Below are positions 6,571 through 62,600 of a stretch of 64,000 nucleotides of DNA, in pieces. The stretch lies in the sequence record MF327008. One strand, 5' to 3'. The number at the start of each line of letters is the position of its first letter. Position 1 is the first letter of the stretch. Made by a program: the position numbers and the translations under genes. The notes beneath the pieces were generated by a model. That model did not search any database, had not been told where the DNA came from, and saw only the letters and a list, made by a program, of their open reading frames with translations. Source of the stretch: Shigella phage Sf24.

Positions 6571-7910
<1,340 letters not shown>

Positions 7911-7935
7911 TATATCATCCTCAGCAATTTGTTTT

Positions 7936-7965
7936 ATAATACCATAACAAGCTGAGAAAGTAAAC
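7936..7965 (-). promoter_or_regulatory. early promoter upstream of the dam-coupled ORF
   Basis: GTTTAC-N18-TATTAT. Confidence 0.6.
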
Positions 7966-8003
7966 AAATTTATGATAAATATTAATTTAAAGGAGGACGA
8001 CGC

Positions 8004-8204
8004 ATGGTACAAAAATTAATGGCAATTGTTAATGCCATCAAAGGTAATAAAAAACGTATAGCTTTTACTATTTCTGCTATGGTAGGAATTTTACTCTGGA
8101 ACTTTATTTTATCACCTGTTGCAATTGCACATGGTATTAATATTCCAGTAGTTACTCTTGATACATTCGTAGATTTAGCATTTGCTTTAGTTGGGTTAAT
8201 TTAA
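8004..8204 (+). CDS. hypothetical small hydrophobic protein (66 aa) on the plus strand
   Basis: AAGGAGG 7 nt before ATG 8004; occupies an otherwise non-coding ~190-bp gap between gene 61 stop and the 7936-7965 promoter. Confidence 0.4.
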   Translation: MVQKLMAIVNAIKGNKKRIAFTISAMVGILLWNFILSPVAIAHGINIPVVTLDTFVDLAFALVGLI

Positions 8205-9229
8205 ATCTTAGCATATTTAGATAACCTCATTTTAGCCATCAACCCCTGGGCAATATTATTTTTCATATATTCCATAATTTGTTCAGGGGTTGCACCTTCC
8301 TTTCTAATCATATCATTAACATCTTTTGATTTCCAGGGAGATTTATCCCAAAACATAACTCTTTCTCCTGCATCAACTAATTTAGTCATTCGTTTGATAG
8401 TGTCAGGGTGACGAGGTTCATTATCTAAAACCCACACTCGTCTATCTTTAAATGGAACAACTTCTAGGTCTAATTGACCACCCGTAATAGCTATACCATT
8501 TTCAATAAAAAGTGAATCTATAGGTCCTTCTAGAACATATACATCACCATCTTTAACTCGTTCAACACCGTAAATTTTTGTTGCCTCAGGATAAGCTTTG
8601 ATGGTGATATACTTTTGTGGAGCATCTTTCTTTAATGCACGTCCTTGAAAAGACTCAGCTTTTCCGTTAGCATTATAAATTGGAATAACAAGACGAGGCT
8701 CAGAAATTTCCTTTTTGTATGTTCCCGGTGCTATGCTATTAACTAATTTAGGCCATTCGGTTGTAAACCAAAGATATTTCCATTTATCCTTTGGAATACA
8801 ACGAGCTTTTACATATTTTATAATTGGATGGTCTTCCGCCAGTTTATCTAATCTAACGCATGACGGAAGAGATTTAATTATTTTCTTCTCAGGCTGTTTA
8901 GGAAGTTCTTTAGGTTTTTCTACTGGACGACTTTTACCTTTTTCTTTTCTTATTTCAAAGATATACTCACGATATAAATCAGGTTCAAACTCCTTTAAAT
9001 ATATTCCGATTGGTGCATGATAGTTACAGTTATAACAATGAATATTTCCTTCATTATTATCACCATAATACCATCCACGGGCTTTATTTTGGTCGGTTTT
9101 TGAATCTCCACAAACAGGGCATCTAAACCGCAACTTAAAGGTTGAACTATTATTTACTTGTGTAAATTTAGGTAAATGAGCTAATGCACGGTATGCAAAC
9201 TCATTATCAATCCAAGGTATTGATGACAT
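8201..9229 (-). CDS. 61: DNA primase (gene 61)
   Basis: 342 aa; zinc ribbon CPVCGDS...HCYNCNYH; TOPRIM-like VLEGPIDSLF. Confidence 0.92.
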   Translation of the reverse strand: MSSIPWIDNEFAYRALAHLPKFTQVNNSSTFKLRFRCPVCGDSKTDQNKARGWYYGDNNEGNIHCYNCNYHAPIGIYLKEFEPDLYREYIFEIRKEKGKSRPVEKPKELPKQPEKKIIKSLPSCVRLDKLAEDHPIIKYVKARCIPKDKWKYLWFTTEWPKLVNSIAPGTYKKEISEPRLVIPIYNANGKAESFQGRALKKDAPQKYITIKAYPEATKIYGVERVKDGDVYVLEGPIDSLFIENGIAITGGQLDLEVVPFKDRRVWVLDNEPRHPDTIKRMTKLVDAGERVMFWDKSPWKSKDVNDMIRKEGATPEQIMEYMKNNIAQGLMAKMRLSKYAKI

Positions 9230-9231
9230 TT

Positions 9232-9396
9232 TTACTCTTCTTTTTCTTTAGATTCCTCTTTCTTCTTTTTAGGAATCTGTTCAGGACCTTTATTTACTAC
9301 AGCACCTGACGTTGTTCCAGTAGAGATATTTTCAGGATTACCACCTGAATCTCCAGCGACCATATCTTCTTTAATAAATTCTTTATATGTTTTCAT
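9232..9396 (-). CDS. small protein (54 aa, 61.1 position) with capsid-targeting-like N-terminus MKTYKEFIKE
   Basis: Hand-translated from ATG 9394-9396 (AGAGGT SD): MKTYKEFIKEDMVAGDSGGNPEN...KKKKEESKEKEE; stop 3 nt before gene 61 ATG. Confidence 0.5.
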   Translation of the reverse strand: MKTYKEFIKEDMVAGDSGGNPENISTGTTSGAVVNKGPEQIPKKKKEESKEKEE

Positions 9397-9397
9397 A

Positions 9398-10024
9398 TTA
9401 ACCTCTATTCATAAAAGCATTAAAAATTTGGTCATCAATAGAAACATTTACTTTAGACTGTTTTTCTGATGGTAATTCATATCCACATATCACAATTTTA
9501 TGATCAATATCAAAATACACAGAAGCAATATGATTAATGATATTTTCAGTGAAGTCTAAATCGACATCAATATCTTTTTGACCAAAGCCCAAAGGATAAA
9601 TAATGCGAGTAATTCGATTATCTTTAACAAAGATTCCACCGACATACTCTGTACTGCGTTTAAAGTCTACACGCCGACGAAATGAAAAATATTCAGGCTC
9701 TTTATGAGCTCGGCTCATAGGACACAACGAATAACTAGAATAAGAGATGTCAAATCCTACGCCTTCAATATGAGCCAAAGTGTCATGATTAAACCAATTA
9801 TAATCGTACGCCAAATCCATTAGATTATAATATGTAAAAGGCACCGGATTAACATCATTAGTCACAAGCATGTAATTAGCAACTGCTATAATTTCATTGT
9901 TTTTAACGAATACAAACCGTGATTGATGCGAATGACCTGGACCCGCGTTTTCACGATTAATGATATAACACTGGGCACCTTTATATTTGTATGTATCTTT
10001 GCACTTGTGCATTTGATAGAGCAT
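9398..10024 (-). CDS. hypothetical protein (208 aa, 61.2 position)
   Basis: Track ORF between 61 and 41. Confidence 0.6.
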   Translation of the reverse strand: MLYQMHKCKDTYKYKGAQCYIINRENAGPGHSHQSRFVFVKNNEIIAVANYMLVTNDVNPVPFTYYNLMDLAYDYNWFNHDTLAHIEGVGFDISYSSYSLCPMSRAHKEPEYFSFRRRVDFKRSTEYVGGIFVKDNRITRIIYPLGFGQKDIDVDLDFTENIINHIASVYFDIDHKIVICGYELPSEKQSKVNVSIDDQIFNAFMNRG

Positions 10025-10317
10025 TATTCACCTACCACTTCAGCGATGATATTTTTGTTATTAAAGTTTTTATCGCAATACAGAACATAATTATACTGCA
10101 TTACACCACCAGACTTAAGCTGTTTTTGCACTTCAGCTTTCATTTCAGGACGATCGCGCTCAACAATATTCATAATATCCGCTTCAATTTGAGTTTCAAC
10201 CTCAGTCTGATCAGCAGTCATAGACCATTCGCACAAATCTTTATCATAACCTGCCATAGCAGGCTGAGCAGCACAAGAAGCTAAAGCAAAAATTGTAGCA
10301 AAGATAAATTTTTTCAT
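10024..10317 (-). CDS. putative lipoprotein (97 aa, 61.3 position)
   Basis: Signal peptide with lipobox-like LASC; GAGGAG SD; own early promoter; locally GC-richer. Confidence 0.6.
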   Translation of the reverse strand: MKKFIFATIFALASCAAQPAMAGYDKDLCEWSMTADQTEVETQIEADIMNIVERDRPEMKAEVQKQLKSGGVMQYNYVLYCDKNFNNKNIIAEVVGE

Positions 10318-10346
10318 GATAATCTCCTCAGTAGTTTATGTTTATA

Positions 10347-10375
10347 TAGTATCTCAATTTCCAACAAAAGTAAAC
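10347..10375 (-). promoter_or_regulatory. early promoter upstream of 61.3-like lipoprotein
   Basis: GTTTAC-N18-TACTAT. Confidence 0.6.
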
Positions 10376-10377
10376 AG

Positions 10378-10635
10378 TTATTTTAAAACTTCTGTGTAAT
10401 CACATGTTACAAACTGTTTCTCTAGCTTGACGATTTTACGAAAGTATCTTTTACATTGACGAATCTGTCGCTTAGTAGGGCGCACAGCAAACTTAATAAA
10501 TTCCACTCGACCAAATGGAGGGCTTTCTTCTGATGGAATATCTAACACCAATTCCCACGTATCTGCAATAAGTGCTTTGAATTGAGTATTTTTCCTAACG
10601 TTATACGGAGTAGGTTTAAATAAAACAATATGCAT
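10378..10635 (-). CDS. hypothetical protein (85 aa, 61.4 position)
   Basis: Track ORF 10378-10677; start moved to ATG 10633-10635 with GAGGATAAT SD to avoid overlap with dmd. Confidence 0.5.
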   Translation of the reverse strand: MHIVLFKPTPYNVRKNTQFKALIADTWELVLDIPSEESPPFGRVEFIKFAVRPTKRQIRQCKRYFRKIVKLEKQFVTCDYTEVLK

Positions 10636-47638: not shown

Positions 47639-47646
47639 TATTTATA
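47639..47646 (-). promoter_or_regulatory. late promoter TATAAATA
   Basis: Exact TATAAATA 26 nt upstream of ATG 47613. Confidence 0.55.
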
Positions 47647-53191: not shown

Positions 53192-53665
53192 TTATTTGAA
53201 TGATTTGACGTACTGAATAGAGCCTTTGCTATTCACGAAAGCGATTTTACCATTTTTGTTATACATGGTAGCAGTACGCTGATAGCCATAAGTTTGCTTA
53301 CCAGATTGATAACCAACTAATGCAAAATTATCTTCACCCATTTTATTCTGTTTGGCGCGGATACGTTCATGACCGTGCGCCATAAGAACCTTAGCATCGC
53401 CAGTTGAAATTGATCTACGAGTTTTTTCATCTTCAACTGTATTAACAAAGTCGTCAAATGAATCAAATTTAGCGTGAGATTTATTATACAGTTTTCCATC
53501 TACTGCATAATTATATCCCTGTACATCCATCTCAACTTCTGTACCATCATCCAATACAGCAGTGATTTTTTGACCTTTTTTAAATTTCAAAAGATCAGTA
53601 AAAGATTCAGCAATAATTTGAGAATTAATAGCTGCTTCAGTGATAAATTCTTGATATGTTTTCAT
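53192..53665 (-). CDS. internal (injected) head protein with capsid targeting sequence
   Basis: N-terminus MKTYQEFITEA matches the CTS of T4 internal proteins as recalled. Confidence 0.75.
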   Translation of the reverse strand: MKTYQEFITEAAINSQIIAESFTDLLKFKKGQKITAVLDDGTEVEMDVQGYNYAVDGKLYNKSHAKFDSFDDFVNTVEDEKTRRSISTGDAKVLMAHGHERIRAKQNKMGEDNFALVGYQSGKQTYGYQRTATMYNKNGKIAFVNSKGSIQYVKSFK

Positions 53666-53674
53666 ATGTTTCCT

Positions 53675-54091
53675 TTAAATGTAAATATTTTTACCGTAAT
53701 ACTTATACCAGTGTGGTTTCATTAAAATTTTTTCATCAAGTCGTTGTTGACTCAATTTAATAGCTGATTTGCATGGATTATAATCATTTTTCCATTCTAC
53801 TGGAATATCGCTGATGTCAGGAACTTCAGTATCTTTTATACTGAACCCTCGTTTTAAGCATTCCGTTATAATGTCTAATTGACGCTTTCGCAAAAATTCT
53901 AACTTATCGTAAAAGAACGTAACATGACCAGAACCTAAAATAAACTCGGAAGATATTTTAAAATCTTTAACGCGCTTACCGTTTGCCACATGCTTACGAA
54001 CTATACCAAAAACACGCGGCAATTCACGGTATTCTGCGATTAAATGTTGATCAGCAAGTTCAGATACTAAAGTCAAATTAATACGAGTCAT
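53675..54091 (-). CDS. denV: endonuclease V (pyrimidine dimer glycosylase)
   Basis: 138 aa; [17 protein letters not shown]... matches T4 DenV as recalled. Confidence 0.92.
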
Positions 54092-54116
54092 TTTATCCCT
54101 CCAAGTAACTGTGAAT

Positions 54117-54146
54117 ATACTATCACAATTCTAGGAGAAAGTAAAC
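54117..54146 (-). promoter_or_regulatory. early promoter upstream of denV
   Basis: GTTTAC-N18-TAGTAT. Confidence 0.6.
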
Positions 54147-54150
54147 AACT

Positions 54151-54681
<531 letters not shown>

Positions 54682-61572: not shown

Positions 61573-61830
61573 TTATTTTAAATCTTCTAATCGTTTCTTC
61601 ATCTTAGAACCATTTTTAGCGATTTCTCCTGCGTCAGAGCATAATGCTAAAAGTGCTTTAACTTTAGTTTGGTCTCCTTTAAAAGACGAAGGATCGACTG
61701 CAGCAGCAAGTTCTTTAATACGAGAGAAAAGACGCTCAGCTTCGGCTAAAGCCATTCCAAGCTTTACTTCCATACCATGAGAAGATTCAGTGATAATAGT
61801 TTCTGTAGCAAACTCTTTATAAGTTTTCAT
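61573..61830 (-). CDS. internal (injected) protein at the ipI locus with capsid targeting sequence
   Basis: 85 aa, N-terminus MKTYKEFATE (CTS-like); position between tRNA cluster and 57B; early promoter upstream. Confidence 0.7.
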   Translation of the reverse strand: MKTYKEFATETIITESSHGMEVKLGMALAEAERLFSRIKELAAAVDPSSFKGDQTKVKALLALCSDAGEIAKNGSKMKKRLEDLK

Positions 61831-61860
61831 TTTATTTTTCCTAATTAATTTTGATGAGGT

Positions 61861-61890
61861 AATAGTATCACTACCTCATCAGTGTGTAAA
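61861..61890 (-). promoter_or_regulatory. early promoter with -10 inside a 10-bp perfect inverted repeat
   Basis: GTTTACA-N18-TACTAT; TGATGAGGTA...TACCTCATCA brackets the -10. Confidence 0.65.
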
Positions 61891-61903
61891 CAACTTTGTG
61901 AAA

Positions 61904-62600
<697 letters not shown>

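Follow-up and report, generated by a model that had tools for sequence, protein, structure and literature searches.

Gene 61.1 and its locus

We describe here a short gene in a stretch of 64,000 nucleotides from Shigella phage Sf24 (record MF327008; the whole stretch is called the window below). The gene is the ortholog of phage T4 gene 61.1, and its 54-residue product is, by alignment, a free-standing copy of the propeptide end, cut site, N-fist and first part of the N-arm of the capsid protein gp23. The window is a segment of a Tequatrovirus genome; over 8000-10400 it shares 99.9% identity with Shigella phage Sf25, whose annotation calls the gene 'similar to phage T4 gp61.1', and 95-99% identity with several hundred T4-type phages. 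The protein (MKTYKEFIKEDMVAGDSGGNPENISTGTTSGAVVNKGPEQIPKKKKEESKEKEE) and T4 61.1 are separated by two residue differences, Y4F and T26I. It matches phrog_1823 over residues 1-54 (E 7e-34), and its residues 8-53 match positions 109-154 of the 156 in phrog_2086, a profile of longer relatives that are considered further on (E 2.6e-16). A Pfam search of the 54 residues returned no match, and the sole frame of the window that matches a hidden Markov model of the family is 9232-9396 on the minus strand. The gene, its parts and its immediate neighbours are listed here with the basis of each assignment; CTS stands for capsid targeting sequence and IP for internal protein.

9232..9396, minus strand: coding sequence (CDS) of the T4 gene 61.1 ortholog, 54 codons plus stop, ATG start (ORF list of open reading frames, Sf25 locus identity, phrog_1823)
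9367..9396, minus strand: leader, codons 1-10, MKTYKEFIKE, a putative CTS-like propeptide with an I-K-E end (match to IP leaders; CTS positions kept)
9367-9369 (codon 10) / 9364-9366 (codon 11), minus strand: predicted gp21-type cut (E10 aligns with gp23 E65)
9283..9366, minus strand: core, codons 11-38, DMVAGDSGGNPENISTGTTSGAVVNKGP, homolog of the gp23* N-fist and N-arm start (BLASTP, hhalign, PDB match)
9235..9282, minus strand: tail, codons 39-54, EQIPKKKKEESKEKEE, a lysine run and then a K/E mix (sequence)
9402..9405, minus strand: GAGG Shine-Dalgarno of 61.1 (read directly from the sequence)
9398-9400, minus strand: stop codon of gene 61.2, one base ahead of the 61.1 ATG
8201..9229, minus strand: gene 61, DNA primase, starting two bases past the 61.1 stop; the adjacency is kept across T4-like genera
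9398..10024, minus strand: gene 61.2 (tifA), upstream operon neighbour of 61.1 (ORF coordinates, Sf25/T4 annotation)

The gene sits outside the IP loci, between 61.2 and 61, and its last codons are purine-rich and overlap the ribosome-binding region of gene 61. Gene 61.2 is tifA, an inhibitor of the ToxN toxin (PMC9391042), and is part of a variable anti-toxin island situated between genes 41 and 61.1.

The capsid protein arm, the predicted cut site and the leader

Residues 2-38 of 61.1 align without gaps to residues 57-93 of T4 gp23 in BLASTP, with 16 identities in 37 positions (43%, E 1e-8). An hhalign comparison of a 65-sequence family-core alignment with a 50-sequence alignment of gp23 N-termini places residues 6-46 on gp23 61-101 (probability 98.5%, E 2.2e-15); the gp23 N-termini were drawn from loci of IMG/VR genomes, as a protein search with the gp23 N-terminus gave only fragments. 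In a sequence search of the whole PDB, gp23 is the sole significant match (E 0.0085). The mature gp23* chains in the PDB have 456 residues (521 minus 65) and their residue 1 is aligned with D11 of 61.1, so that the predicted FIKE|DMVAGD cut superimposes on the known FLTE|AEIGGD cut. The gp23-homologous stretch takes in the E65|A66 maturation cut, the 25-residue N-fist and the start of the N-arm, and the KKKK run of 61.1 falls on V99-R101 (VRR) of gp23 in the profile alignment. Among the short forms of the family, to which 61.1 of the window belongs, the core has a dN/dS of 0.087, indicative of strong purifying selection.

The 65 N-terminal residues of gp23 are removed by gp21 (Fang et al. 2022, PMC9546572), which prefers to cut after Glu in I/L-x-E (PMC12991175). 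In the unexpanded head gp23 residues 66-105 are disordered, point inward and probably touch the scaffolding core; three head-length mutations (A66D, A94V and G97S) fall within this stretch, and scaffold peptides exit via openings 14-17 Å wide (all PMC9546572). The N-fist, the first 25 residues of gp23*, contacts four subunits (PMC9958956). AlphaFold2 models 61.1 as a short helix at residues 4-13 and otherwise as low-confidence coil (pLDDT 60, pTM 0.18), so that the I-K-E motif lies in a segment predicted to be helical and then coil. The two segments are alike in about 41 homologous residues in the same register, cut site included, in being disordered unless held in the expanded lattice (a prediction for 61.1), and in the basic stretch that comes next, VRR in gp23 and KKKK in 61.1. 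Unlike gp23, 61.1 lies in the replication-gene cluster and is transcribed early, and a lysine-rich tail replaces the rest of the N-arm. Of the features that mark the gp23 family (PF07068), the N-terminal homology over 61-101 is present, whereas the HK97-fold P, A and I domains are absent from this protein of 54 residues with no Pfam match. Without the HK97-fold body that gp23 has, 61.1 cannot be a shell subunit.

Similarity to gp23 has already been noticed by automated annotation pipelines, to judge from the names they assign: orthologs of 61.1 are called 'major capsid protein' or 'putative major capsid protein' in OP870144, NC_054937, PQ657802 and NC_070779, and the NCBI and UniRef names of relatives include 'major capsid domain-containing protein'. 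Because the similarity is to the gp23 N-arm only, we regard 'major capsid protein' as a misnomer. Recent gene conversion from gene 23 is excluded as the source of the resemblance, given that T4 61.1 and gene 23 have only 52% nucleotide identity and identical codons at 6 of 17 shared residues.

The leader resembles the N-termini of two further genes of the window.

53192..53665, minus strand: CTS-bearing IP starting MKTYQEFITE, adjoining denV (phrog_3155 'internal virion protein', E 1e-101; Pfam DUF7412)
61573..61830, minus strand: CTS-bearing IP starting MKTYKEFATE, in the ipI locus adjoining 57B (phrog_3499 'internal head protein', E 4e-50)

A sequence-only reading of the window had called the N-terminus of 61.1 almost identical to those of both genes, and we find eight of its ten residues identical in each. 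The window has 1,878 possible ORF starts of 25 aa or more; the runner-up among them scores 6/10 (a TTG-start internal frame) and the others 5 or less, which puts the similarity between 61.1 and the IP leaders far beyond chance. The same reading had proposed a check of the cleavage consensus, and this too comes out in favour of the likeness: the leader ends in I-K-E, fitting the I/L-x-E preference of gp21, and keeps CTS processing positions 8 and 10. Amber-suppressor mutagenesis of the IPIII CTS assigned targeting mainly to residues 4 and 7 and processing to residues 8 and 10 (PMC9026906). All four determinants are retained in 61.1, Y4 and F7 for targeting and I8 and E10 for processing. T4 IPII and IPIII begin MKTYQEFIAE, and T4 IPI begins MKTFKEF, the same as T4 61.1. 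T4 61.1 and T4 ipI have the same first 22 nt, which we considered as a trace of recent gene conversion from an IP gene; by a rough estimate from T4 codon usage, such a match would arise by chance about 3% of the time, and we take it as suggestive only. A covariation of residue 4 between 61.1 and the ipI locus (F in both in T4, Y in both in the window) was considered and dropped, since contig 3300010279_000005 breaks it, with MKTYKEF in 61.1 and MKTFKEF in its IPs. The first seven leader codons have a dN/dS of 0.18 among short forms, again purifying selection.

CTS positions 4, 7, 8 and 10 are also in register with F59, F62, L63 and E65 of gp23 and with I4, L7, L8 and E10 of gp24, whose leader MAKINELLRE has hydrophobic residues at 4, 7 and 8 and Glu at 10. 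Judged from these alignments, the CTS may be a general signature of a propeptide end rather than one specific to IPs. Like 61.1, for which the cut is a prediction, gp67, gp68 and gp24 are small proteins or carry short propeptides and are cut after Glu at I/L-x-E in the prohead. However, the genes for gp67 and gp68 belong to the late head-gene cluster, and a normal head shape depends on both proteins, whereas 61.1 has no sequence similarity to them and no known phenotype.

From the leader, the sequence-only reading had gone on to propose that 61.1 is a third IP-type cargo, targeted by its CTS, relieved of its leader and injected with the DNA as an anti-restriction or first-response counter-defence effector. 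The likeness to T4 IPI, IPII and IPIII (Mullaney and Black 1996; PMC9026906) is real as far as it goes, and extends from the ten-residue leader MKT[YF]x[ED]F[I]xE, with its aromatic residue 4, Phe 7, Ile 8, Glu 10 and I/L-x-E end for gp21, to early-class RNA and dispensability in a laboratory host. Besides the 8/10 match, the full set of CTS determinants and the fit to the gp21 motif, a cargo role draws support from the neighbouring counter-defence or exclusion genes dmd, tifA/61.2 and sp, and from some relatives of ~250 aa that resemble a cargo polyprotein, with another CTS-like stretch and an additional domain beyond the module. The rest of the protein and its distribution argue otherwise. 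T4 IPs are hypervariable, lineage-specific, folded effectors encoded at the e/denV and 57B loci, whereas 61.1 is conserved across genera and fixed by the primase gene, and its mature part is a 44-residue gp23 homolog with predicted disorder rather than a folded inhibitor. 61.1 is not among the CTS genes recovered from the e and 57B loci of 28 related genomes. When 61.1 loci were paired with the 57B-side and e-side loci of the same IMG/VR genomes, every paired genome carried several genes with near-uniform MKTYQEFIxE leaders, including genomes with a long-form 61.1 that has no N-terminal CTS, and genomes of the JS98 type combine a drifted 61.1 leader, MKSFKEVMNE, with IP leaders that stay at MKTYQEFIxE. 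The N-terminal CTS is thus a trait of the T-even-type short form and not of the family, most genera having a ~105-aa N-terminal domain in its place. On this evidence the cargo interpretation is quite unlikely, and the inference to a typical anti-restriction effector is not supported, while the leader itself stands as a genuine CTS look-alike (Y4, F7, I8, E10; I-x-E; purifying selection). The description of the product as acidic and lysine-rich has to be corrected as well: the predicted mature peptide of the window has a net charge of -2 and a mixed K/E tail, and the tail of the family is normally strongly basic.

The IP loci of the window themselves differ from those of T4. The order e, denV and one 157-aa IP (phrog_3155, DUF7412; 53192-54645) is found here versus e, ipIII, ipII, denV in T4, and the ipI locus by 57B (61573-62359) holds an 85-aa phrog_3499 protein instead of IPI.

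Family architectures and the phiN3 contrast

A tblastn search with 61.1 reached ~1,500 phage records, in which distant genera keep residues 10-42 and not the leader, and a profile search of 1.84 billion representative proteins returned 52 clusters at E <= 1e-3. The conserved module ranges from coliphages to Vibrio, Acinetobacter and Sinorhizobium phages, and occurs in two architectures. Short forms of 50-70 aa have CTS-like leaders such as MKTFNEFLKE, MIKFKDFVE and MKTIKELIE. Long forms of 120-165 aa, in most genera ~155 aa, carry the module at the C-terminus, and the N-terminal domain (N-domain) of ~105 aa replaces the CTS. The long form is the syntenic ortholog by the primase gene in Klebsiella phage KP27, Acinetobacter phage Acj61 and Vibrio phage XZ1, and likewise lies by the primase gene in CC31-type, Serratia, Citrobacter and Pseudomonas phages; across both architectures, the primase gene follows 61.1 directly or closely in T4, KP27, Acj61, Vibrio XZ1, phiN3, Muldoon, CfP1 and PspYZU05. 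The N-domain is present in 617 phage records. AlphaFold2 predicts it as helical with moderate confidence and the C-terminal module as disordered; it has no Pfam match, neither the window nor the T4 loci compared contain a homolog, and a fold search of BFVD with the long-form model found only family members and two large viral proteins (672 aa and 913 aa).

What both architectures share is the module together with the hydrophobic-x-Glu (Φ-x-E) site that always precedes it. Of 156 family members, 155 have a Glu 2-4 residues ahead of the xGD motif; P3 is L, I, F, M or V in 116 of 138 unique family sequences, and the 51 long forms that were aligned all have the Glu before the module. Nearly all relatives have a basic tail, the median charge being +3 for short forms and +6 for long ones as compared with 0 in the phage of the window, which makes the K/E tail of the T4 type an exception within the family.

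Several relatives depart from these two plans. Those of ~250 aa (P0038, P0053 and L038:1501-1644 with its flanks) have a second CTS-like stretch, M-N-E-V-x-x-F-K-Q-F-V-E, after the basic tail, followed by a further domain of ~100 aa, and resemble polyproteins with several protease sites. In Aeromonas phage Assk (MH791404, L213:896-2935) a 680-aa CDS named 'DNA primase-helicase subunit' links the gp41 helicase with a long-form 61.1; this fusion is probably an artefact, as the two parts meet at a run of N (XXXXXXX) in a record marked UNVERIFIED. On the gp23 side, divergent metagenomic gp23 sequences (36-41% identical to T4 gp23) are without the N-fist segment; they probably come from cyanophage- or pelagiphage-like relatives of T4, and cyanophages do not appear among the matches listed for 61.1.

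A further relative, in Sinorhizobium phage phiN3 (Emdodecavirus), is a 141-aa ortholog one ORF away from the primase gene, with an N-domain that matches the CC31 long form (E 1e-16). Its module is not of the T4 type, reading ...IVE|VEGSAVPSTNTGNIPDTVAKKSPVLKRKEK (over a longer span of the C-terminal stretch, ...EAYIVE|VEGSAVPSTNTGNIPDTVAKKSPVLKRKEKSLLK), and the gp23 of phiN3 is likewise without a T4-type N-fist, reading ...MSGLLQE|AAPTTNTGNIATYDPVLISLVRR. The best match of the phiN3 module inside phiN3 gp23 is this very segment, AAPTTNTGNIATYDPVLISLVRR, with 12 of 21 identities. In shuffle tests the module resembles the gp23 of its own phage (p 1.5e-4 for phiN3 and at most 5e-5 for T4), while the cross pairs between phiN3 and T4 give p 0.73 and 0.91. 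At the residues shared by 61.1 and gp23 of phiN3 the third codon positions differ nearly throughout, and this, together with the differing codons of the T4 pair, indicates that the resemblance does not stem from recent copying but has been maintained at the level of the protein.

These observations bear on the possibility that 61.1 is an accessory factor of the primosome, or just an upstream ORF through which translation is coupled to that of the primase gene, and that its capsid-like segment is a relic. In every lineage examined at most two small ORFs separate 61.1 from the primase gene 61; two bases lie between the 61.1 stop, which follows purine-rich codons, and the gene 61 ATG; the long forms have a conserved, predicted helical N-domain; and a basic tail could bind nucleic acid. 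Against this, the T4-type short form has lost the N-domain and kept the capsid-like module under the strong purifying selection noted above for its core, the module tracks the type of gp23 arm in phiN3, unlike a relic, and the sole helicase-61.1 fusion seen is the probable artefact of phage Assk. We consider such a role very unlikely. Two ORFs lie between dam and gene 61 in the window, at 7350-8012 on the minus strand and 8004-8204 on the plus strand, and are named in Sf25 as gp161 'putative effector protein' and gp162, a predicted membrane protein; T4 has just a ~310 bp gap between dam and 61, which marks this as a variable insertion site beside the replication genes.

Expression and candidate roles

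The homology with gp23, the register of the cut sites, the family-wide conservation of site and module and the parallel change in phiN3 are observed. Taken with these, our preferred reading, which we hold tentatively and at somewhat less than an even chance, is that 61.1 mimics the capsid arm, is disordered, and becomes a gp21 substrate on entering the prohead core. The protein would be made from the early 61.2-61.1-61 transcript and persist until head assembly, when it would join the prohead core via the contacts used by the gp23 N-terminal region and the IP leaders. Cleavage by gp21 after Glu10 would then yield a 44-residue peptide starting DMVAGD..., just as gp23* starts AEIGGD..., and this peptide might either be kept with the DNA as a minor internal peptide or exit with the scaffold fragments. 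A substrate of this kind in the prohead would explain the CTS-like leader, the conserved Φ-x-E, the disorder, the basic tail and the parallel change in phiN3; the gp22 and gp67 scaffold sequences appear rich in acidic residues, a possible counterpart of that basic tail. A role in head assembly or maturation is more likely than one in counter-defence.

RNA of T4 61.1 is classed as early, but so is that of the T4 IP genes, whose proteins accumulate late (PMC9697503 supplement). Because the IP genes likewise have early RNA, early transcription is no argument against a role in the head.

A number of observations nevertheless weigh against a prohead substrate. Core binding, cleavage and the fate of the peptide are steps that we infer. 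T4 61.1 protein was not detected in a whole-cell time-course proteome (PMC9697503 supplement), and the main text and supplements, as far as available to us, of a T4 mass-spectrometry study of head protein processing do not mention 61.1, although a 4.5-kDa peptide would be easily missed by mass spectrometry. There is no TATAAATA late promoter from 61.1 to position 47639, nor anywhere in 5600-47639, whereas both IP genes have one within ~1.1 kb upstream; the window total of 7 such motifs is not above the shuffled-sequence expectation. Knock-down of T4 61.1 by CRISPRi-ART had no fitness effect in a laboratory host (PMC11879866 supplement), and any role in assembly is therefore dispensable there. 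The ~105-aa N-domain and the primase adjacency of most orthologs point to a second function unrelated to heads, and neither that domain nor the fixed position by the primase gene is explained by cleavage in the prohead. In Pseudomonas phage Milchi the ortholog by the primase gene (L207:2489-2866) keeps the N-domain and has no capsid-like module or basic tail, so the two parts of the long form can exist separately. Finally, the parallel change is a single deep contrast, phiN3 versus T4: a tblastn search with the phiN3 protein for a second lineage combining 61.1 with a gp23 arm of another type gave only the Emdodecavirus group outside the T4 type, and fine-scale covariation of 61.1 with gp23 across 15 lineages with T4-type arms is not significant (permutation p 0.28), the own pair being top-ranked only in the Aeromonas, KP27-type and CGG4-1 lineages. 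We attribute this last result to lack of power, because gp23 is too invariant among these lineages.

The TATAAATA motifs on the minus strand at 54659-54679, 60885, 61193 and 62957 lie upstream of e, denV and one IP gene, and upstream of 57A, 57B and the other IP gene.

Early transcription would also suit a protein that acts before heads are built. In this alternative 61.1 is a cytoplasmic decoy, made before gp23 and never packaged, that occupies a factor recognising either the N-arm of gp23 or its maturation junction. This factor might be stray active gp21, whose premature or off-target cuts, including those of host tripwire sensors for proteases such as CBASS CD-NTases, it would limit, or else a host sensor of capsid protein. 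Cytoplasmic gp21 activity is known to trigger a CBASS system via an L-P-E loop (PMC12991175), and the resemblance of 61.1 to the gp23 arm of its own phage, the adjoining anti-toxin island and the dispensability of the gene in a defence-poor laboratory host all fit. Yet conservation of the family across phages of enterobacteria, Vibrio, Aeromonas, Acinetobacter and Sinorhizobium favours a partner internal to the phage, and a simple competitor substrate needs neither a conserved 28-residue arm nor a basic tail. Moreover, no host sensor for gp23 residues 57-101 is known. A decoy is, in our judgement, unlikely, and a small share of the probability goes to none of the four readings considered here.

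Our literature search found no link of 61.1 to CTSs, heads or any function, and no description of its CTS-like leader, of the cut-site register with gp23, of the two architectures or of the parallel change with gp23. T4 head assembly is among the best-studied assembly pathways, yet gene 61.1 is listed as hypothetical. If 61.1 is a substrate of gp21 that copies the core-facing arm of gp23, it would be a conserved new player in prohead assembly and maturation, and a natural probe for the partners of the gp23 N-terminus before expansion, a part that is unresolved in unexpanded-head structures. It would also hint at the origin of the CTS used in T4 nanoparticle engineering, since the gp23 cleavage junction has the same four positions. 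In a wider form of this proposal, possible but doubtful at present, 61.1 would represent a class of trans-acting gp23 N-arm mimics that are released by the protease, copy the arm of their own phage and change with gp23, acting on the scaffolding core, the protease or adjacent capsomers so as to adjust assembly, the length of the head or the timing of maturation, or to shield a step from host sensors; the targeting sequence of IPs would then derive from a general propeptide-end signature shared by gp23, gp24, IPs and 61.1. More immediately, the analysis corrects the recurring misannotation of 61.1 as 'major capsid protein', and it cautions that a CTS-like N-terminus does not always mark an injected counter-defence effector.

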